From NCBI GenBank assembly GCA_963786935.1, contig CAWBAN010000001.1:1408001-1472000 (forward strand): a stretch of 64,000 nucleotides of DNA. Reading direction: 5' to 3'. Within the stretch, counting starts at the first letter, position 1; the number at the start of each line of letters is the position of its first letter. Below are positions 29,408 to 39,781 of the stretch, piece after piece. Origin of the DNA: an uncultured bacterium (GTDB taxonomy: Bacteria; Krumholzibacteriota; Krumholzibacteriia; Krumholzibacteriales; Krumholzibacteriaceae). A program made the position numbers and the translations under genes. The notes under the pieces are model-generated. The model searched no databases. It saw only the letters and a program-made list of their open reading frames with translations, and was not told where the DNA came from.

Positions 29408-30400
29408 CTAGAACGAGAACTTCGGAACGCCCGGCCGTTTCTTCCCGCGCCGCCGCGTGAGCACCGCCGCCGCGACGATCGGGAGCGCGATCGTGGCGTC
29501 GCAGAGGACGGTGACCTGCTTCGCGTCCGCCGCGATCTTGCCCCACGACACGGCCTCGTCGAACGTGCACCCGCTCAATCCCCCCCACTGGGGCGGATCG
29601 GCGACGAACTGAATCGCGTAGCGGTGCCCCTCGACGCGCCGTCCGAGCACCTGATTGGTCACCTCGGTCTGCTGGATGAAGTTCTTCGGCGTGCCGCCGC
29701 CGACGTAGATCACCATCGTCCGCTTCATCGCGGCGATGTCGGCGGTCTCCTCGACGTCGCCCACCATGTCGAAAATCACCTTCGGCGTGCGGCCGGCGAG
29801 CCCGATGCCGATCGAGGAGTCCCCGATCGCGGGGCAGTACACCGGCACGCCTTTCCGGTAGGCCGCGCTCAGAATCCCCTGCTGCCCCTTCGACAGACGA
29901 TTCGCCTCCTTGCCGAGAAGGGAGAGGAACTCCCTCGTCGTGTACGGCCGGTCCTCGAGCGTCCTCGTCGCCCATGCGCCGATCTTCTTGTCGAGGCTCT
30001 GGAATCCCTCCTCGTCGGCGAACGTGTCGTAGATCCGATCGACCATATCCTCGCGGAGCTTCGCGTCGTCCGCGTTCGGAGAGCCGAGGTAATGGTAGCT
30101 TCCCGCCGTTTCGTAGAAATCGTGGTAGAGGTTCGCCCCCGTCGACGCGATCACGTCGATGAACCGGCGCTCGATGAGCGTCACGAGCACCTTGCGCATG
30201 CCCGCGGGCACCATGGCGCCGGCGAGCCCGAGCATGACGATGATATCGTCGTCGAGCGCCTCGGCCCAGATGCGGGCGGCGTGCCCGAGTCCCCGCGCCT
30301 GGAAGCTGCACCCCTCGAGCCCTTCGAGGAGCGCGTCGCACGTCATGCCGGCCCTGAGCTCGATCGGCCGCGTCGGATGGGAAAGGTACTTACGCTTCAC
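29408..30400 (-). CDS. Deoxyhypusine synthase-like protein (SpeY/homospermidine pathway type)
   Basis: STGANLYHD, RIYD, PAIGDSSIG, GGGTPKNF, GGLSGCTFDEAVSWGK with the catalytic Lys. Confidence 0.9.
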   Translation of the reverse strand: MKRKYLSHPTRPIELRAGMTCDALLEGLEGCSFQARGLGHAARIWAEALDDDIIVMLGLAGAMVPAGMRKVLVTLIERRFIDVIASTGANLYHDFYETAGSYHYLGSPNADDAKLREDMVDRIYDTFADEEGFQSLDKKIGAWATRTLEDRPYTTREFLSLLGKEANRLSKGQQGILSAAYRKGVPVYCPAIGDSSIGIGLAGRTPKVIFDMVGDVEETADIAAMKRTMVIYVGGGTPKNFIQQTEVTNQVLGRRVEGHRYAIQFVADPPQWGGLSGCTFDEAVSWGKIAADAKQVTVLCDATIALPIVAAAVLTRRRGKKRPGVPKFSF

Positions 30401-31232
30401 GGTTCAGCTCCTTCCGGATATATCTCGAAATCGCCTCATAGACGATCTTCGCCGCGATGAAATTCGACGTCTCGTCGCGCTCCACGGGCATGAGCTCGAC
30501 CGCGTCCATCGCCACGACGCGCTTGTTCTCGAACACGAACGTGAGGAGATCCATCAGCTCGTCCCACTGGAGGCCCCCCGGCTCCGGCGTCCCGACGGCG
30601 CGGAGGATCGAAGGATCGACCGCGTCGAAATCGATCGACAGGTAGACGGATTCGGGAAGCCGCCGGATCGCTTCCCACGCTCCCTCGTTCCAGAACCCGA
30701 AGATCCGCGTGCCGTCGCAGCCCCGCAGGTATTCGCGCTCCTCGCTCGAGTAGCTCCGCACGCCGATCTGGACGAGCTTTCCGAACGGGAGCGAATTGCG
30801 CGCCGCGCACGCGTGGCTCTCCTTCTCGCCGAGGTACTGCGCGCGCATGTCGGCGTGCGCGTCGAGCCACACGATGCCGATTGACTCGAGGCCGAGCCCC
30901 TCGAGGATCCACGGCGTGATCGAGTGCTCGCCGCCGAGAAAGCAGGGAAGCGTCCGACTGAAATACTCGCGATTGGCGCGGACGAACGATACCACGTCGT
31001 CCTTGCTCGCGAGCTTCTCGCGGAGGGTGACGATGCCCGTTTTCTCGAGATCGACGTCGAGCGCGGAGTTGTAGAACTCGATCTGCAGCGATGCGTCGAG
31101 GATCGCCTGCGGGGCGCGGGCGGTGCCCCTCCCGTAGGAGGCGCTCCATTCGACGGGAACAGGGATCACGGCGACGCGATCCCTGTTTGCTCCCGAAACT
31201 TCCGTTCCGAGAAAATCGTATGTCCGTTCCAT
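30390..31232 (-). CDS. speB: Agmatinase / ureohydrolase
   Basis: GGEHSIT, DAHAD, SHAC, SIDFDAVDP, GTPEPGG. Confidence 0.92.
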   Translation of the reverse strand: MERTYDFLGTEVSGANRDRVAVIPVPVEWSASYGRGTARAPQAILDASLQIEFYNSALDVDLEKTGIVTLREKLASKDDVVSFVRANREYFSRTLPCFLGGEHSITPWILEGLGLESIGIVWLDAHADMRAQYLGEKESHACAARNSLPFGKLVQIGVRSYSSEEREYLRGCDGTRIFGFWNEGAWEAIRRLPESVYLSIDFDAVDPSILRAVGTPEPGGLQWDELMDLLTFVFENKRVVAMDAVELMPVERDETSNFIAAKIVYEAISRYIRKELNREA

Positions 31233-31792
31233 CACCGGCTCTTGTAGTTGCAGAACACTGCCGCGGCAACGGTCGTCGTCCACATCCCATCCTTGCCGAG
31301 CACCGTCTGCGTGATGTTCGTCGTGCGGACGATCTGGCGCGCGATCTTCCACTCCTGCTTGCGCTCGTTCCACGCCCGTGTCAGGTCGATCTCGATGCCG
31401 AGCGTCGAGGCGAGCATCGTCGCGGCGAGATCCTCGGTGTAATCGCCGAGCTCCTCCTGCCGCTTTCCATAGGCGTGATGCTCGGAGATGTAGCCGTACC
31501 GCTTCCGGTCCTCGGGTATCGCCACGCCGATCGCGGAGCCGACGAGCCGGCTCTGCTCGTCCGTGTGGTTGGTGCTCAGCACGCAGTAGACAATCTCGCC
31601 CGGATGCAACATCGAAGCCCCTCGCGTCCGCGGGATCAGGACGCAGTGAGGCGGGAAGATGCTCGAAACGTGGACGAGGTTGAACTGCGACAATCCCGCG
31701 GCCCGCAACGCGAGCTCGAAGCTGGTGAGCTTCTCCTTGTGTCTCCCGGCGCCGCGCGTCAGGAATATCTTGTCGGGGACTTTACCCTCCAC
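31232..31792 (-). CDS. pdaD: Pyruvoyl-dependent arginine decarboxylase
   Basis: SFELALRAAG..FNLVHVSSIFP (Ser-Ser cleavage site), GYISEHH; GTG start after GAGG. Confidence 0.9.
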   Translation of the reverse strand: MEGKVPDKIFLTRGAGRHKEKLTSFELALRAAGLSQFNLVHVSSIFPPHCVLIPRTRGASMLHPGEIVYCVLSTNHTDEQSRLVGSAIGVAIPEDRKRYGYISEHHAYGKRQEELGDYTEDLAATMLASTLGIEIDLTRAWNERKQEWKIARQIVRTTNITQTVLGKDGMWTTTVAAAVFCNYKSR

Positions 31793-31914
31793 GGAGTACC
31801 TCTCTTCGAAAGGGTGCGATGTTTGTGCGGCTTCGCCGTTCCGCCGAACCGCCGCCCCACACCGATTGATTCGGTTCGAATGCATTATGAACGAGGCGAG
31901 CGCGTTGTCAACCC

Positions 31915-32506: not shown

Positions 32507-32550
32507 TCGGTAACCCGCGCTCGACGCGGATGCACCACGGAGCGTATCGA

Positions 32551-33549
32551 ATGCGACAGGAAGCGGTATTCATGCGGAGCGAGGAAACGCTCTTCGCGTT
32601 TCTCGCGGAGCGACTCGACGGCGTGTTCGCGCGCGGCGACCGCGTGGCGATCAAGATGCACATGGGAGAGCCCGGCAACACGCGCATCATCCCGGCGCCG
32701 TTCGCGAAGCGAGTCGGCGGGTGTCTCAAGCGGCTCGGCGCCAAGCCGTTCATCTTCGACTCGCCGGTCGTGTACCGGAGCCCCCGCGGCGACGAGCGCC
32801 GCTATCTCGAGACGGCGGCGGCCCACGGATTCTCGAAGAAGGAGCTCGGCTTCCCCGTCGTCGTCTCGAACGCCGGCGTCCCGGTGAAGGGATCGCTCAT
32901 GACCTACCGGGTCTGCACGGAGCTGCTCGAGGCGGACGGCGTGCTCCTCCTCTCGCACGTCAAGGGACACGTCGCGTGCGGCATGGGGGGCGCCGTCAAG
33001 AACGTCGGCATGGGATGCATGGCCAAGGAAACGAAGGGCGCCATCCACGAGGGGGGCGAGCCGGTCTACGGGAAAGGCTGCACGCAGTGCGGCACGTGCG
33101 TCGAGAACTGCCCGACGGAGAACATCACGCTCGACGAGACGGGGCCGCGATTCGGCGCCACGTGGTGCCCGGGATGCAGTAACTGCGTCCTCGTCTGCCC
33201 GGCGAAGTGCATCCGGCCCCGCGTCGCGACGTTCGACGATCTCCTCGCCGAGGCGGCGGCGCTCGGGCACGGACGATTCAAGAAGCGTTTCTCGGTGAAC
33301 GTTCTCAGGAACATCACGAAGTTCTGCGACTGCATGTCCGACCCGGGACCGCTCATCGCGCCGGACATCGGGTTCGTGTGCGCGGACGACATGGTCGCGG
33401 CCGACGCCGCGACCCTCGAGACGATCGCCCGCGAGACGGGGCGCCCGGACGTCTTCGCCGAGCACCACAAGCACTCGGCCGGGGAGCACGTGCGGGCGGC
33501 GGCGCGGTTCGCCGGCGTCGACGCGTCCGTCGCCGTGAAGGAGATCTGA
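32551..33549 (+). CDS. DUF362-family Fe-S protein with ferredoxin insert
   Basis: VAIKMHMGEPGN, SHVKGH..GMGGAVKNVGMGC, CTQCGTCVENCP, CPGCSNCVLVCP, CDC...DIG. Confidence 0.88.
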   Translation: MRQEAVFMRSEETLFAFLAERLDGVFARGDRVAIKMHMGEPGNTRIIPAPFAKRVGGCLKRLGAKPFIFDSPVVYRSPRGDERRYLETAAAHGFSKKELGFPVVVSNAGVPVKGSLMTYRVCTELLEADGVLLLSHVKGHVACGMGGAVKNVGMGCMAKETKGAIHEGGEPVYGKGCTQCGTCVENCPTENITLDETGPRFGATWCPGCSNCVLVCPAKCIRPRVATFDDLLAEAAALGHGRFKKRFSVNVLRNITKFCDCMSDPGPLIAPDIGFVCADDMVAADAATLETIARETGRPDVFAEHHKHSAGEHVRAAARFAGVDASVAVKEI

Positions 33550-33550
33550 C

Positions 33551-35254
33551 GTGGCGGGGAGCGCCATCACGTTCGCGCTGCTCGGCCCGGGGCTCGGCGG
33601 CGTTATCGACGTCCTCGCCGGCAATCCGATCGTCCTCCTCTTTTCGATCATCGGGCTCGGCTTCCTCCTCGGCAACATCAGGATTCTCGGATTCAACCTC
33701 GGGGTCGCCGCCGTCCTCTTCGTCGGCATGGCGTTCAGCGCGCTCGACGGGCGCCTCATCCTCCCCGATCACATATACGTCATCGGGCTCGTCCTCTTCG
33801 TGTACGCCATCGGCCTCCAGTCGGGCACCGGGTTCTTCGCCTCGTTCCGCAAACGGGGGCTGCGGCTCAACGTGCTCGCCGTCGCGATCCTCTGCGCGGG
33901 AGCGGCGATCGCGGTGATCCTCAAGAGCGTCATGGGGCTCTCCGCGCCGAGCGTCGCGGGGCTCTTCTGCGGCGCCCTCACGAACACGCCGGCGCTCGCC
34001 GCGACGATCGAGACGATCGACAACATGAAGGGAGCGTTCCCCCCCGAAACGGCGAAGCTCTACCTCGAGAGCCCCGTCGTCACCTACGGGCTCGCGTATC
34101 CGTTCGGCGTTCTCGGCGTCATCCTCTGGTTCTTCTTCTTCGTCAAGATATTCAAGATCGACTTCGCGAAGGAAGAGGCCGCGCGCCTCACGGAGTCGGG
34201 CGCGGGGAGCATCGTCAGCAGAACGTTCAAGATCACCAATCCCGCGATCGACGGCAAGACCGTCGCCGGCGCGCTCGCCGCGCTCGGCGAGCCCGGATTC
34301 GTCCTGAGCCGCATCAAGCAGGGAGACGTGATCTCCGTTGTGCTCCCGAATACGGTGCTCTCGCTCGGGAATCTCGTCGTCGCCGTGGGCAATCCCGACA
34401 CGCTCGAGCGCGCCCGCATCGTCTTCGGCGAGTTGAGCGCCGAGCACCTTCCCGAGACGTCGGGGAACATCTCCTACCGGCGCATCTTCGTTTCGAACAA
34501 GCGGGTGATCGGCAAGACGCTCCGCGAGCTCGATCTGCACAAGCTCTTCGACGCGACGATCACGAGGCTCCGCCGCGGCGACGTGGATTTCGTCCCCGCT
34601 CCCGACACGATCCTCGAGGCGGGGGACCGCATCCGCGTCGTGACGCGCCGCGACAACATCGACGCGATCTCGAAATTCTTCGGCGATTCGATCCGGTCCA
34701 TCTCCGAAACGGACTTCCTCTCCCTCTCGCTCGGCGTCGTGCTCGGCGTTTTTCTCGGGATGATCGCGTTTCCGCTCCCCAACGGGATGGTCTTCCGGCT
34801 CGGCTTCGCGGGAGGGCCGCTCATCGTCGGCCTCATCCTCGGCAAGATCGAGCGCACGGGGCCGATCATCTGGGGGCTCCCCCTTCCGGCGAATCTCGTC
34901 CTCAGGCAGGTCGGGCTCGTGTTCTTCCTCGCGGCGATCGGCACGAAGGCGGGGCCGGGATTCGGCGCGACGTTCAAGACGGGCGGATGGGGGCTTATCG
35001 CGGCCGGCGCGCTCATCACCACCCTCGTCGCCGTGGGGGCGATTCTCGCCGGGTACAAGTACCTCAAGCTCCCGATGTCCGCGGTCATGGGCGTCGTCTC
35101 GGGGATGCACACGCAGCCCGCCTGCCTCGCCTACGCGAACCAGCAGGCGGCGAACGAGCTGCCGAACATCTGGTACGCCGCGGTGTACCCCGCATCCATG
35201 ATCGCGAAGATCCTGCTCGCGCAGATCATCGTCTCGTTCCTCCTCGTGGCCTGA
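33551..35254 (+). CDS. AspT/YidE/YbjL family transporter
   Basis: GLVLFVYAIG, GALTNTPALA, YGLAYPFG, two central TrkA-C domains, duplicated TM domain. Confidence 0.92.
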   Translation: MAGSAITFALLGPGLGGVIDVLAGNPIVLLFSIIGLGFLLGNIRILGFNLGVAAVLFVGMAFSALDGRLILPDHIYVIGLVLFVYAIGLQSGTGFFASFRKRGLRLNVLAVAILCAGAAIAVILKSVMGLSAPSVAGLFCGALTNTPALAATIETIDNMKGAFPPETAKLYLESPVVTYGLAYPFGVLGVILWFFFFVKIFKIDFAKEEAARLTESGAGSIVSRTFKITNPAIDGKTVAGALAALGEPGFVLSRIKQGDVISVVLPNTVLSLGNLVVAVGNPDTLERARIVFGELSAEHLPETSGNISYRRIFVSNKRVIGKTLRELDLHKLFDATITRLRRGDVDFVPAPDTILEAGDRIRVVTRRDNIDAISKFFGDSIRSISETDFLSLSLGVVLGVFLGMIAFPLPNGMVFRLGFAGGPLIVGLILGKIERTGPIIWGLPLPANLVLRQVGLVFFLAAIGTKAGPGFGATFKTGGWGLIAAGALITTLVAVGAILAGYKYLKLPMSAVMGVVSGMHTQPACLAYANQQAANELPNIWYAAVYPASMIAKILLAQIIVSFLLVA

Positions 35255-35351: not shown

Positions 35352-35870
35352 ATGAAGAAGATCGTCGCGCTCGCCGCCGCCCTGCTCATACTCTCCCCTG
35401 GTCTCGTCCGGGCGGTGGACGTGGACGTGCAGGCGGAGGATTTCACGAACTCCTACAACATCGAGCCCGAGATCATCCGCGCCGACGGCGGATCGCTCCT
35501 CGGCCTCGACTATCCGGGCGAGTGGGCGGAGTTTCATTTCGCGGCCTCGACGTTCGGAACATACACCGTGATGCTGCGCTGCTGGGGCAACGCGAACGTC
35601 CCCTACCATTTCCATCTCGCCATCATGCCCGTTCAGGGGGAGGATCCACAAACAATCGAGATCAGCTACATCGGCAAAGGCTTTTGCGGAGCTTGAGGCA
35701 CCGCGCTCTACCCCACCGGGAGTGGGGTCAGGATCTTCGAATCCCCGCTCACCTTCAGGCTGATATTCGTGTCGGGAGAGAACAACGCCTGGATCGACTG
35801 GTTCCGTTTCTCGTCGGCGACCGCGACGGAGAGCCAGTCCTGGGGAGCGATCAAGAGCCTGTTCCGCTAG
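35352..35870 (+). CDS. Secreted CBM6/35-like selenoprotein, 172 aa, CxxU (CGAU) with Sec at TGA 35694-35696
   Basis: Signal peptide, QAEDF, GEWAEF, GTYTV; read-through gives GTALYP...NAWIDWFRF...ESQSWGAIKSLFR-TAG, completing the fold and adding a C-terminal tag. Confidence 0.82.
35710..35728 (+). promoter_or_regulatory. Putative SECIS hairpin
   Basis: Perfect 7-bp stem ACCCCAC-CGGGA-GTGGGGT; loop starts 21 nt after the UGA. Confidence 0.7.
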
Positions 35871-35914: not shown

Positions 35915-37894
35915 CTAGAACTCGATCGAGGAATAGAGCGAGTACATGTCGGTTTTCGATTCCGCCTCGCCGGATGAGGTGATCGCGTCGTTGTCGACCC
36001 GCTCGTAGCGCAGCCGGAGCGCGCCGATCTTCTCGAACTCGCGCCGCAGCTCTGCGACGATTCCGCGCCGGCGCTCATCGAGGGGGGAACCGGTGCCGTC
36101 CCGCCACCTTTTGCTTTCGAGCCAGCCGAGCTCCGCGCCGAATCCTCCCCTGAGGACGAGGTCGAGCGAGGCGCCGGCGAGGGAGATCTGCGCGCGATCC
36201 GTCTCGCTCGGCGCGAGGTCGGCCTCGCGGAGCCTCTTGTAGAAGAGATCGATCGAAACGCGATCGTCGAAGAGCGGCACGCGGGCCGACGTGCGGAGCC
36301 CTTCGGTGTTCTCCTCGTACGAAAGGGCGGCATAAGGCGTGGCGTATCCGCGCGAGAGCCGCAGGTAATCGACGAGCACGGCGGGGCCGAGCGGCTTCTC
36401 GATCACGATCCCCCCGAACCCTCCGCTCCCCCGGTGGAATTCGTCCACGTACTCGAGACTCTGATTCAAGATGCCCTTTTCCTTGGTGTCGTTCCACGCG
36501 ATGATCTCGCCGCGCAGACGGGCGTATCGCACGATCGGCGCCTCCGCCGTGAAGCTCAGCGTCCGCGTTTGGATCCACGGATCCGCGGCGTAATATCCGA
36601 GCCCGACAAAATCGACCGAGTTTTTGTTCTCGAAGCTCGCGATCGCGTGAGCCGCCGCTCTCCAGAACGATCCGGTCCGTTCGTCGAGGCGCTGCCACCG
36701 CAGCTCGGCGCCGGCGATCTCCTGCGAGTATTGCGCCCGCTCCTCCCCGCCGTAGCGGTACGCCCCATAGTCCGTTTCGAGCTCCCGCCGCGGGATCGCA
36801 TAAAAAACACGCGCCTCGAAATCGGCCGCGGAGTATGTCGCGTGCGCCCCCTCGAACGTGAGAACGGGCCCGAGCTCCTCGAGACTCTCGAGAAGGAGCA
36901 CCCCCGCGGCAGCGCCGCCGCACCCGCATCCCGCGTCCCCGCCGATGCGCGGATTGTCGTCCCAGTCCCAGCGCATGAGCGTGAGCGGCGTCATGAAGAT
37001 GTCGTAGTACCCGAGCCTGCCGATGAATCCCCCCGCTTCGACCTCGGCGAACGCGCTTCCCCATTCCGACCCGAGGTATTCCGGCCCCGACGCGAGAACC
37101 TCCTCCCCTTCGTTGCTGATTCTGAGGAGGCCTCCGGCGCGCAGCGACTTCGCGAGCCTCAGCGATCCCTCGACCTCGAGCCGGTACTGCACGCCGCGCT
37201 GCGTGCTCGCCGGTTCGCCGTAGAGCCCCGTCGCGTCATCCCCCTGCGCGTCGACGGCGAGAAGCCTGATCCGCTGCAGCCCGTGATAGGAAAACGCGAT
37301 TCCCCTCGCGGGCGCCGCCGGAACGGCGGCTTGCACCGGCTCGCCGGACGCGCCGGGCGCTTCCGCGCTCTCCGCGGCGGCGACGCTTCCCTCCCGCAGC
37401 ATCTCCTCCATCGCCGCGCCGGCGTCTCCCTCGGGATCGAACCGGATCCCGCGCACGATCCCTTCCCGGTCGACGAGAATCAGCGCAAACGCCTCGAAGG
37501 GGATACCGTAGCTCGAAGCCGCCATTCCTCCCGCGTCGAGCGCCTGCGGGAACGTGATGCGGTTCGACTCGATCGTGCCGCGGACGGCGAGCCGGTCCCC
37601 GTCATCCGTATTGATGCCGAGGACCGTGATGTCCTCTCCTCCATACAGGCGATAGAAGCGTTCGCAGCCGAGGAGCGATTCGACGCAGTGCGGGCAGCTC
37701 GAACGCCAGAACACGAGAAACGTCTGCTCGTGCCGCGGGAAGAGTCCGTCCGACCGCACGGCATCTCCGCCCTCCATGAGACGCAGCTCGAACGAGGGCG
37801 CCGCCCGCCCCGGCTCGACGGCGAGCGCGGGCGCCGCCGCGCAAACGCACGCCGCGATCGCGATCGCGGCCCCGGCACGGAACAGTCGCTTCAT
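35915..37894 (-). CDS. TlpA/redoxin (CPHC) domain fused to a probable outer-membrane beta-barrel
   Basis: Signal peptide, APSFEL, FWRSSCPHC, VLGIN; amphipathic strands, GCGCG motif, terminal YSSIEF. Confidence 0.7.
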   Translation of the reverse strand: MKRLFRAGAAIAIAACVCAAAPALAVEPGRAAPSFELRLMEGGDAVRSDGLFPRHEQTFLVFWRSSCPHCVESLLGCERFYRLYGGEDITVLGINTDDGDRLAVRGTIESNRITFPQALDAGGMAASSYGIPFEAFALILVDREGIVRGIRFDPEGDAGAAMEEMLREGSVAAAESAEAPGASGEPVQAAVPAAPARGIAFSYHGLQRIRLLAVDAQGDDATGLYGEPASTQRGVQYRLEVEGSLRLAKSLRAGGLLRISNEGEEVLASGPEYLGSEWGSAFAEVEAGGFIGRLGYYDIFMTPLTLMRWDWDDNPRIGGDAGCGCGGAAAGVLLLESLEELGPVLTFEGAHATYSAADFEARVFYAIPRRELETDYGAYRYGGEERAQYSQEIAGAELRWQRLDERTGSFWRAAAHAIASFENKNSVDFVGLGYYAADPWIQTRTLSFTAEAPIVRYARLRGEIIAWNDTKEKGILNQSLEYVDEFHRGSGGFGGIVIEKPLGPAVLVDYLRLSRGYATPYAALSYEENTEGLRTSARVPLFDDRVSIDLFYKRLREADLAPSETDRAQISLAGASLDLVLRGGFGAELGWLESKRWRDGTGSPLDERRRGIVAELRREFEKIGALRLRYERVDNDAITSSGEAESKTDMYSLYSSIEF

Positions 37895-37994
37895 GAAGAT
37901 CTCCTCCCCGATCCGTTCCCCGTTGAAGTTTCCTCGCGCCACCAGTATATTCGCACCTTCGGGGCGCTCAAACATATTTCGCGGGGTTATCGGG

Positions 37995-39329
37995 ATGCAT
38001 GTCGACCGGCGCATGAACATCGAAATCGTGAAGCTCTCCGGGCCGGTCATGATCGGCATGCTCTCGCACACGATGCTCCAGCTCGTGGACACGGCGATGG
38101 TCGGGAGGCTCGGAATCGCCCCCCTCGCCGCGGTCGGGCTCGCTTCGCTCTTCCTGCACGTCACGGTCCTCGCATTCGGCTCGCTCGGCGTCGGCACGCA
38201 GGCGATCACGGCGCGGCGGCACGGCGAGCGCCGGTTCGACGAGTACCCGCGCATCGCGCTCAACGCGTTCGCCCTCGCCCTGGCCGTCGGCATTCCCGTC
38301 TCGATCGCGGGCGGCTACCTCACCCCGTGGATCTTCCCGAAGCTCGCCGCCGATCCGGCCGTCGCGCGCGAGGGGATCGCCTATATGAGCATCCGGTTCG
38401 GCGGCCTCTTCTGCGTCATCGCGATGATGACCCTCGGCGGGTTCGCCTACGGCGCCGGCCGCGTCAAGATCGACATGATCGTCTCGGTCGTCGTCAACGG
38501 ACTCCATATCCTCCTCAACTACCTCCTCATCTTCGGACACGCGGGCTTTCCTCGCCTCGAGGTGCGGGGGGCGGCGATCGCGTCGGTGATCAGCACGGTT
38601 ATCGGGATGCTCCTCTACCTCGCCCTCGTCCGCTTCAGGATTCTCGGGGGGCTTCCGGCGCCGCGTCCCGGCGCGCAGCTGTCGAAACCGCTCATGGCGC
38701 GGATCGTGCGGATATCGGGGCCCCGCGCCGTCCAGAGCGTGACGATCGCGGGATTCGTCGTGTTCCTGAGCCTCATCGGGCGGATCGGCGTCGGCGAGCT
38801 GGCCATCAGCAACGTCATCTTCAAGGCGTTCGACCTGTCGTTCATGATCGGGCTCTCGATCGGAACCGCCTCCGCGACCCTCGTCGGGCGCAGCCTCGGG
38901 GAGCGGAATCCGTCGCTCGCCGCGCGATACGGATGGCACGCCGCCGCGATCGGCTCCCTCCTCATGGGGATCATCGGGGCGTCGTTCGTGTTCTTCCCCC
39001 GTGCGATCATGGGCGTCTTCACGGACGATCTCGCGGCGATCGAGAAGGGAACCGCCGTGTTCAGACTGCTCGGCGCGTTCCAGTTCATCGACGCGGTCGG
39101 CATCATCCTCTCCCGCACCCTCCAGGGGGCCGGCAGCACCCTCTACGTCATGCTCGCCGAGATGGCCTGCATGGGCGGCATCCTCCTGCCGGTCTCCTAC
39201 GTGTCGGTCGAAATCCTCCACCGGGGAATCCTTTCCGCGTGGTGCGCGGTCTATCTCTACATCGTCTGCTTCGCCGCCGCGATGGCGTGGAAATTCAGGG
39301 AGGGCGGCTGGCGGCACATCGAGCTGTGA
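37995..39329 (+). CDS. MATE family efflux transporter
   Basis: LVDTAMVGRLG..PLAAVG, LNYLLIFG, GAAIAS, TLVGRSLG, C-terminal GGW. Confidence 0.93.
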   Translation: MHVDRRMNIEIVKLSGPVMIGMLSHTMLQLVDTAMVGRLGIAPLAAVGLASLFLHVTVLAFGSLGVGTQAITARRHGERRFDEYPRIALNAFALALAVGIPVSIAGGYLTPWIFPKLAADPAVAREGIAYMSIRFGGLFCVIAMMTLGGFAYGAGRVKIDMIVSVVVNGLHILLNYLLIFGHAGFPRLEVRGAAIASVISTVIGMLLYLALVRFRILGGLPAPRPGAQLSKPLMARIVRISGPRAVQSVTIAGFVVFLSLIGRIGVGELAISNVIFKAFDLSFMIGLSIGTASATLVGRSLGERNPSLAARYGWHAAAIGSLLMGIIGASFVFFPRAIMGVFTDDLAAIEKGTAVFRLLGAFQFIDAVGIILSRTLQGAGSTLYVMLAEMACMGGILLPVSYVSVEILHRGILSAWCAVYLYIVCFAAAMAWKFREGGWRHIEL

Positions 39330-39340
39330 GCGGCCCGGGC

Positions 39341-39361
39341 CCGCCCCGCGGGGCGGCTTTT
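39341..39361 (+). terminator. Probable intrinsic terminator after the MATE gene
   Basis: CCGCCC-CGCG-GGGCGG followed by CTTTT. Confidence 0.55.
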
Positions 39362-39363
39362 CC

Positions 39364-39404
39364 TTGACTTCGTCTTTATATTATTATATGAGTATATAGG
39401 AATA
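39364..39404 (+). promoter_or_regulatory. Promoter/operator of the ArsR operon
   Basis: TTGACT followed by an AT-rich imperfect inverted repeat (TATTATTATATGAGTATATAGGAATA) in an otherwise GC-rich context. Confidence 0.55.
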
Positions 39405-39421
39405 CGAGAAAGGGATCTTCG

Positions 39422-39781
39422 ATGACGTTCGACGCCGGATCGATGCCGTTCGAGCTCGTGGCGAGGCGCCTCAAGGCGCTCGCCGATCCCTCGCGGCTCG
39501 CGGTGCTCCGGTTCCTCTGCGACGGAGAACGGTGCGTGACCGAGATCGTCGATGAAACGGGGCTCGCGCAGGCGAACGTCTCGAAGCACCTGCGCATCCT
39601 GCTCGGCGAGGATTTCGTCCGCGCCCGCCGGGAGCGCCGGAACGTGTTCTATCGCCTCTCGAACGGAATGAGCGAGGAGATATGCGCGATCATCTGCAGG
39701 TCGATACGGGAACGGGCGTCCGGCGAGACGCGCGCGCTCGCGCGCTTCGGGGGCCGGAAACGCGCGCGAAAGGCCGGTTGA
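39422..39781 (+). CDS. ArsR/SmtB family transcriptional regulator
   Basis: LKALADPSRL..L..L...ERCV.EI....GLAQANVSKHLRIL...V...R....FYRL; Cys-rich. Confidence 0.93.
   Translation: MTFDAGSMPFELVARRLKALADPSRLAVLRFLCDGERCVTEIVDETGLAQANVSKHLRILLGEDFVRARRERRNVFYRLSNGMSEEICAIICRSIRERASGETRALARFGGRKRARKAG

Follow-up and report, generated by a model that had tools for sequence, protein, structure and literature searches.

An apparently new selenoprotein family with a predicted carbohydrate-binding-module fold, linked to a TlpA-porin fusion, in the uncultured phylum Krumholzibacteriota

The window analyzed here is a stretch of 64,000 nucleotides from an uncultured bacterium of the Krumholzibacteriaceae (assembly GCA_963786935.1, five contigs, 96.5% complete; contig CAWBAN010000001.1, positions 1,408,001–1,472,000), and all coordinates below are those of the window unless a contig is named. 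Comparative analysis shows that positions 35352–35870 make up a single gene for a predicted selenoprotein of 172 residues, in which codon 115, a TGA, would be read as selenocysteine (Sec). The same comparisons show that the selenoprotein family is found throughout one uncultured phylum (close homologs are called Candidatus Krumholzibacteria by their sources) and that the linkage of its gene with that of a TlpA-porin fusion protein is conserved. It is well supported that the protein is exported via a predicted signal peptide and folds as a stand-alone beta-jelly-roll of the kind found in carbohydrate-binding module (CBM) families 6 and 35.

A single reading frame through an in-frame TGA

The open reading frame (ORF) begins with the ATG at 35352 and runs to ...KGFCGA, where it meets TGA at 35694–35696. 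Beyond this triplet it stays open for 57 sense codons, among them those for NAWIDWFRF, until the TAG at 35868–35870, the C-terminal end being ...ATESQSWGAIKSLFR. The read-through product, P0001, has the N-terminus MKKIVALAAALLILSPGLVRA and the C-terminal letters ...NAWIDWFRFSSATATESQSWGAIKSLFR, and the residues around Sec115 are ...GFCGA-U-GTALY... (that is, GFCGA-U-GTALYPTGSGVR). The open frame, the NAWIDWFRF segment and a hairpin just 3' of the TGA had all been described in an initial annotation made from the letters of the window, and all were found again at the same positions. The features of the gene are as follows.

35352..35870, + strand: selenoprotein gene, 172 codons and a TAG stop, for the read-through protein P0001 (an ORF whose homologs span positions 1–172 with one in-frame TGA)
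35352..35414, + strand: predicted export signal peptide, residues 1–21 (MKKIVALAAALLILSPGLVRA; helix 2–13 in the model, cleavage site placed by eye)
35418..35819, + strand: CBM6/35-like beta-jelly-roll domain, residues ~23–156 (AlphaFold2 model, Foldseek and profile matches)
35685..35687, + strand: Cys112 codon (TGC) of a local C-G-A-U motif (Cys kept in only 15 of 59 Sec forms)
35694..35696, + strand: selenocysteine codon UGA, residue 115 (in the aligned column 59 of 67 homologs have U and 8 have C)
35707..35732, + strand: selenocysteine insertion sequence (SECIS) hairpin, core stem 35710–35716/35722–35728, loop 35717–35721 (covariation, RNAalifold, register of selD)
35838..35867, + strand: C-terminal tail SWGAIKSLFR (common to ~39 other ORFs of the host genome)

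A six-frame search with the 172-residue read-through sequence as query, made in 60 related genomes and the window's own (61 in total), gave 44 match rows from 35 genomes. Exactly one in-frame TGA is present in 39 of these rows, two in one row and none in four, the last being two short fragments and two full-length tandem paralogs. When the 42 full-length rows were aligned, with the two short fragments left out and TGA written as U, the TGA column held U in 40 rows and Cys (TGT or TGC) in two. Adding 25 rows from the rest of the phylum, for a total of 67, gave U in 59 and C in eight and no other residue, at identities down to ~25%; Trp, Arg and Gly, which the initial annotation had regarded as the mark of a simple nonsense mutation, do not occur at this position. 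It had also made its proposal depend on a conserved downstream frame and on the presence of the Sec machinery. The part 3' of the Sec codon aligns to its end in all rows, and profile matches reach position 171. The ratio of non-synonymous to synonymous substitution rates (dN/dS; 36 pairs, nine close orthologs) is 0.33 upstream and 0.42 downstream of the Sec codon, and it follows from the latter value that the frame 3' of the TGA is translated and under purifying selection. The host genome encodes SelA (494 bits), SelB (356 bits), SelD (361 bits, with one in-frame TGA of its own) and tRNA-Sec (71.7 bits), all over curated cut-offs. In four genomes a Sec form and a Cys form stand in tandem, at loci L034 (G004:C100), L035 (G001:C241), L064 (G082:C214) and L065 (G085:C70).

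TGA is at the same time an ordinary stop in the host genome. The upstream gene at 33551–35254 terminates with TGA (35252–35254), as do the genes of 17 of the 42 homologs, and TGA is therefore not generally reassigned.

Protein databases hold the family in the form expected of overlooked selenoproteins. When 1.84 billion representative proteins were searched with the family profile, 761 matched at E <= 1e-3. The best 150 of these 761 comprise 99 proteins of 107–153 residues that stop exactly at the position of Sec, 12 full-length forms (176–206 residues), all with Cys there, one C-terminal fragment annotated as an ORF of its own, 34 large multidomain proteins and four others. Truncated forms together with a few Cys forms are the classic signature of a selenoprotein family, and the truncation by annotation pipelines that had been predicted for this gene is what is seen, the databases holding stubs of ~114 residues. 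A word-index search gave 31 close homologs, each covering 58–66% of the query; those with names are all 'hypothetical protein', two of them from metagenome-assembled genomes of Candidatus Krumholzibacteria/Krumholzibacteriia.

A covarying hairpin downstream of the Sec codon

The hairpin consists of a perfect 7-bp stem, ACCCCAC (35710–35716) with GTGGGGT (35722–35728), closed by the loop CGGGA (35717–35721), and the core stem is lengthened by three more pairs with one bulge. It starts 13 nt 3' of the TGA, and, with the A of the TGA as reference, the loop begins 21 nt further on (nt 24–28 counted from the U). The bSECISearch program looks for a stem-loop in a window of 16–37 nt 3' of the UGA with a G in the apical loop, and a stem-loop shortly 3' of the UGA with a G in its apical loop is found here.

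The significance of the hairpin comes from comparison across homologs only, and not from the fold of the single sequence. When 54 nt from the TGA onwards were aligned for the 40 Sec forms of the first homolog set, RNAalifold, unprompted, recovered the hairpin of the initial annotation with six pairs, every one of them with compensatory changes, and the SECIS-like element suggested there is thus upheld both by covariation and by de novo folding. In the 5-bp core helix 91.8% of cells are paired and all five pairs have changed on both sides. The 7-pair structure is 80.4% paired, as against 35–57% when the 3' partner is slid by 1–3 columns, and the covariation score of 0.531 was reached by none of 500 shuffles (0.220 +/- 0.024). 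One stem pair joins the first base of a Thr/Ala codon with a synonymous Ser third base (AU 13, GC 17, UA 6), a pattern that protein constraints alone would not give. Both G's of the loop (GG) are invariant in the 40 Sec forms, the start of the loop falls at nt 21–27 in 37 of 40 homologs, and in the Cys paralogs of L034 and L035 one pair of the hairpin is broken.

The host selD gene (G000 contig C1, 1324868–1325791, − strand, locus L010), which is itself a selenoprotein gene (context ...SCAGUAAK...), offers a comparison from the same genome. Its SECIS has the same register, with the first paired nucleotide at 14, the loop from nt 24 and GG in the loop, but it differs in stem sequence and has a 3-nt GGA loop with a bulged U where the present hairpin has the 5-nt CGGGA. 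SelB together with tRNA-Sec would decode UGA-115 as selenocysteine, directed by the hairpin 13 nt downstream. That the TGA should be a true stop (by nonsense mutation, in a pseudogene or between two ORFs), or be reassigned to another amino acid, is extremely improbable: gene callers do end the protein at residue 114 and the hairpin by itself is not significant, but the triplet is kept in 59 of 67 homologs with Cys as the sole alternative, the frame beyond it is under purifying selection, the hairpin covaries, and TGA serves as terminator of the neighbouring gene and of many homolog genes.

A predicted stand-alone jelly-roll of the CBM6/35 superfamily

The AlphaFold2 model built from the 42-row alignment (predicted local distance difference test (pLDDT) 85.8, predicted TM-score (pTM) 0.75) has an N-terminal helix (residues 2–13), eleven strands within 23–156 and a low-confidence C-terminal helix (164–170), and Sec115 sits in a Gly-rich loop between strands 100–107 and 122–128 (strands 8 and 9). 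Foldseek against the PDB gave 83 matches with E <= 1e-3, the best being CBM6 (2cdp_D, E 4.4e-7, TM-score 0.76 on the target), with CBM35 and CBM36 next in rank. At the level of single sequences the relation is faint: P0001 has no match in Pfam or NCBIfam at E <= 10, and the threshold of Pfam CBM_6 (PF03422) is passed by none of the 42 members, seven of which have weak matches (best E 0.013). The profile of the family reaches further. The multidomain proteins that it matches (E 1e-24 to 1e-13) are of the CBM_6/CBM_35 kind, and all ten that were checked carry Pfam CBM_6; a profile search of the PDB found CBM6-bearing chains, of which the best (8zvk_A, E 6e-7) is matched over the N-terminal framework only (about residues 25–84). 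The CBM6 framework motifs AE-[DN]-[FY] and G-E-W are kept in the selenoprotein family. The jelly-roll that the initial annotation had guessed at is thus borne out by predicted fold and profile homology alike.

The residues G51, G108, U115 and G123 are invariant in the family, L52, E57, W58, G69, G79 and G110 are nearly so, and the consensus of the Sec loop is F-T-G-x-G-[YFL]-G-U. Judged by strand parity in the model, the loops 51–57, 80–83 and 108–121 would share one end of the sandwich, which we take to be the 'cleft A' end of CBM6. With CBM6, CBM35 and CBM36 the selenoprotein has in common the beta-jelly-roll fold, the N-terminal framework motifs and profile-level homology; it differs in standing alone and not being appended to an enzyme, in falling below the Pfam CBM_6 threshold and in its invariant Sec/Cys loop, which lies beyond the reach of CBM6 profile similarity. 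The selenoprotein is a divergent, stand-alone offshoot of the CBM6/35 superfamily, and the Sec loop is its own invention.

The N-termini of homologs are of like character to the predicted signal peptide of P0001 in the alignment. At the other end most homologs finish in ...(V/T)E..SWGxIKSL(Y/F)R, and in five of 42 a domain of ~90 residues of the Por_Secre_tail or FlgD_ig type (Pfam) takes the place of this short tail. P0001 is without such a type IX sorting domain and ends in the SWGxIKSLFR tail. The domains of the type IX secretion (T9SS) kind in these five homologs argue that the family may be directed to the outer membrane or past it. The host genome has about 39 further ORFs that end in ...(G/A)(V/T)E..(S/T/N)WGxIKSL(Y/F)R, most of them with signal-peptide-like N-termini (for example C1:255085–255963, C3:186578–187123 and C5:150628–151173, within loci L104–L119), and no Pfam family was found in 14 of the 16 tail-bearing ORFs scanned. 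The tail looks like a putative C-terminal tag, hitherto undescribed, by which proteins of the phylum would be sorted or anchored; the part of the literature covered by the search yielded no paper on it.

In one homolog (L045; G040:C20:41832–42347, − strand) a second in-frame TGA stands where others have the Trp of the tail (SWG). This TGA could be a true stop, by which the tail is lost, or else result from a sequencing error or mark a second case of recoding.

Cysteines around the Sec codon

The initial annotation had seen in C-G-A-U a CxxU redox motif and had proposed that the protein works by a selenenylsulfide switch. The motif is present in P0001 and is retained in all nine closest orthologs, but it is limited to this genus and a few relatives. 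Among the 59 Sec forms 15 have CxxU, six CxU and seven UxC, while 31 have no Cys within three residues of Sec and three are devoid of any further Cys past the signal peptide. The truncated database representatives agree with this, only 19 of 99 having a Cys among the final three residues; GYG (28) and GFG (10) are the ends most often seen. As the second Cys is not conserved, a selenenylsulfide between C and U cannot be the common mechanism of the family.

What is left of the proposal is an intramolecular switch between C112 and U115, as in CxxU redox proteins, which is possible for P0001 itself although as an account of the protein it is doubtful. Besides CxxU and the neighbouring CxU and UxC arrangements, a Cys-form representative (P0026) with CxxC at the same place speaks for it. 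Apart from the loss of the second Cys across the family, the fold, which is not thioredoxin-like, and the position of the motif in a flexible Gly-rich loop instead of at the N-terminus of a helix speak against it.

Linkage to a TlpA-porin fusion protein

Downstream of the selenoprotein gene, and convergent with it, lies a gene for a large predicted envelope protein with the following features.

35915..37894, − strand: protein of 659 residues with signal peptide, TlpA/ResA-like thioredoxin domain and porin-like beta-barrel (start MKRLFRAG chosen from homolog lengths)
37685..37696, − strand: CPHC active-site motif (C67, C70) of the TlpA-like domain (invariant in 46 sequences; the CPHC variant of ResA is among the fold matches)
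36920..36928, − strand: invariant C-G-C (C323, C325) in barrel loop 300–344 (invariant columns; loop between strands 290–299 and 345–355)

In Pfam the N-terminal part is an AhpC-TSA/Redoxin domain with CPHC, and the C-terminal part of ~460 residues, ending in ...SSIEF, has no match. Homologs of the same architecture number 142 at E <= 1e-10 and are named 'TlpA disulfide reductase family protein' (Candidatus Krumholzibacteriia and others) or 'peroxiredoxin'. Both cysteine pairs, C67 and C70 of CPHC and C323 and C325 of GDAGCGCG, are invariant in the 46 sequences aligned. The AlphaFold2 model (pLDDT 84, pTM 0.81) shows a thioredoxin fold at 36–171, a disordered linker and ~20 long antiparallel strands; Foldseek matched the N-terminal domain to ResA (TM-score 0.85) and the barrel to OccK/OpdK, AlgE, MOMP and chitoporin (E ~4e-9). 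With its thioredoxin fold, CxxC motif and predicted export the protein has the marks of a TlpA/ResA reductase, a class that reduces specific client proteins of the envelope. From the TlpA/ResA-CcdA/DsbD pathway, with which it shares its N-terminal domain, it differs in its fusion to a porin-like barrel, which adds a further invariant Cys pair (CGC), and the presumed client carries Sec and not a Cys pair. No paper on a TlpA-porin fusion surfaced in the portion of the literature that was searched.

Co-occurrence was tabulated by hand over 208 genomes of the phylum, with Cys forms counted as selenoproteins. The barrel domain was found in 45 genomes, and 54 have the selenoprotein at full length, as Sec or Cys form; 43 genomes have both genes, two the barrel only, 11 the selenoprotein only and 152 neither, a table that overstates the association as related genomes are not independent, and which is suggestive only. 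In 39 of the 43 genomes with both genes the pair is adjacent, in two the genes lie on different contigs, each at a contig end, and in two they are apart (4.9 and 220 kb). Among 20 loci compared with wide flanks 12 hold the pair, six in convergent orientation (the family of the window and three others) and six co-directional (one family). Since both arrangements are seen, the pairing has survived rearrangement by inversion. The sole extra cluster in these neighbourhoods consists of proteins with the common T9SS-type C-terminal domain.

At one locus (L085; G015:C6:116005–117383) the TlpA-porin ortholog beside the selenoprotein gene matches in three pieces in different frames and is either frameshifted or mis-assembled.

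Proposed function

It is tentatively proposed, at somewhat less than even likelihood, that Sec115 is the reactive centre of a redox reaction in the cell envelope and is kept reduced by the TlpA-porin neighbour. The periplasmic CPHC domain would supply electrons to Sec115, perhaps by way of the CGC loop. In this genus Cys112 could act as resolving residue through a C112–U115 selenenylsulfide, and in most of the family, which is without such a Cys, the TlpA-porin protein or the substrate may provide the partner thiol. The CBM-like scaffold suggests that the substrate is a glycan-linked or surface-bound oxidant, a disulfide or a chalcogen compound. The third loop of classical porins is folded into the pore, and the CGC loop could therefore be reachable from both faces of the membrane. 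It is tempting to speculate that the two proteins form a relay spanning the outer membrane, in which electrons would pass from CPHC to the CGC on what strand parity makes the third barrel loop and on to a surface-docked Sec115 that reduces an extracellular substrate, but such a relay must be called unlikely.

It is also conceivable, if somewhat unlikely, that Sec is a soft ligand with which the jelly-roll binds or shuttles a chalcophilic metal(loid) or a sulfur or selenium species that is exchanged with the adjacent porin, in which case the TlpA domain would keep the ligand residue reduced. The lone Sec of most members (31 of 59 without Cys within three residues, three without any other Cys) would suit a ligand or single nucleophile, the partner barrel is of the substrate-channel type (OccK/AlgE/chitoporin), and genes for an ArsR-type regulator and a MatE exporter lie nearby in the host genome. 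This last context is however limited to close relatives, no metal-binding motif or family was detected with Pfam and NCBIfam, and the interchange of Sec and Cys does not separate a ligand from a catalyst.

It is improbable that the protein is an ordinary glycan-binding lectin or CBM that serves in surface attachment, with Sec as no more than a structural or protective residue. The CBM6-type fold, the profile homology and the retained framework motifs would all be expected of such a lectin, but a costly Sec codon with its SECIS has been kept phylum-wide with Cys as the sole alternative, which indicates a chemically active residue; moreover, the protein stands alone, without the catalytic domain of a carbohydrate-active enzyme (CAZyme), and its conserved partner is a thiol reductase and not a glycan enzyme.

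Taken as a whole, the explanation that the gene encodes a selenocysteine-containing, exported CBM6-fold protein is likely to be correct, its redox role in the envelope being the more tentative part. A number of points nevertheless weigh against it. The assignment of Sec is drawn entirely from sequence comparison. Of the 208 genomes of the phylum 200 have SelA, as do all 125 of those that are of high quality; every carrier of the family thus has a Sec-decoding background, which is consistent with Sec decoding of the TGA but cannot discriminate. As a single sequence of 76 nt the SECIS region folds no better than expected of G+C-rich DNA (z = -0.38; 75 of 200 shuffles fold as well), its minimum-energy structure differs from the hairpin of the initial annotation, and no curated SECIS family was found in the window with Rfam at gathering thresholds, which gave four tRNAs only. 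As to the partner, the CGC loop is modelled at low confidence (pLDDT <50 at 318–330), the two genes are arranged tail-to-tail in the host genome and so are not co-transcribed, and to the non-independence of the genomes noted above are added the 11 genomes in which this query found a selenoprotein but no barrel gene, and the second and third selenoprotein copies in one genome, which are without the neighbour. No third conserved gene, such as one for a CcdA/DsbD inner-membrane electron donor, was found near the loci. Finally, the mature selenoprotein may be located either in the periplasm or at the cell surface.

Relation to known selenoproteins

Among the bacterial selenoproteins known so far, the majority are oxidoreductases of the cytoplasm or periplasm whose folds are thioredoxin-like or those of metallo-enzymes. 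The present family is set apart by an invariant selenocysteine on an exported carbohydrate-binding-module scaffold, mostly without partner cysteine and tied to a TlpA-porin fusion. A list of 87 prokaryotic selenoprotein families from 2022 (PMC9312934, Table 1) has no CBM-like or jelly-roll family, though a few domain-less 'hypothetical' entries in it cannot be excluded by name, and most of its families have a thioredoxin-like fold with a fixed two-residue redox motif. With the SelW-like, AhpD-like, DsbA/DsbG-like, DUF1573 'UGC' and Prx-like families of that list (PMC9312934) the present one shares the in-frame UGA, Sec/Cys pairs, a downstream SECIS, truncated database annotation and a Sec that is likely the reactive residue. 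In contrast to the CxxU, UxxC and UGC families it has a jelly-roll fold in which only Sec is invariant, and it is exported and tied to an outer-membrane protein.

As far as the accessible parts of these sources go, the nine deep-Sep families (PMC12013277) are different proteins, the eight families of a 2022 preprint (10.1101/2022.07.06.499078) are unrelated, and BSepDB (PMC13326102) counts 111 families, the genome list in its supplement having no 'Krumholzibacter' or 'carbohydrate' entry. Within the literature covered, searches on Krumholzibacteri* with selenocysteine and on selenoprotein with type IX secretion surfaced only unrelated work. The initial annotation had not recognised the protein as a member of a described selenoprotein family, and it is likewise without a match in Pfam, in NCBIfam or in that part of the literature that was compared. 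Set beside the list of 87 and the families above, this is apparently a new selenoprotein family with unprecedented fold, location and partner.

The finding adds a family to the bacterial selenoproteome, corrects the mis-annotation of at least 99 sequence clusters that are cut at the Sec codon, and gives the uncultured Krumholzibacteriota a testable envelope redox system. If the relay across the outer membrane were true, it would bear on how reducing power passes this membrane without haem or flavin shuttles, and it would be the first thiol-based reducing route described through the outer membrane of a bacterium, and its selenoenzyme the first one at the cell surface to be built on a lectin scaffold.

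Other genes of the window

The selenoprotein gene is flanked at 32530–35254 (+ strand) and 37776–39781 (+ strand) by genes for a DUF362/4Fe-4S protein, an Asp-Al_Ex/TrkA_C permease, a MatE exporter and an ArsR-type regulator, a context that is kept only among close relatives. Further upstream, at 29408–31885 (− strand), lies a polyamine set of genes for pyruvoyl-dependent arginine decarboxylase and for proteins of the arginase family (agmatinase-like) and the deoxyhypusine-synthase family.

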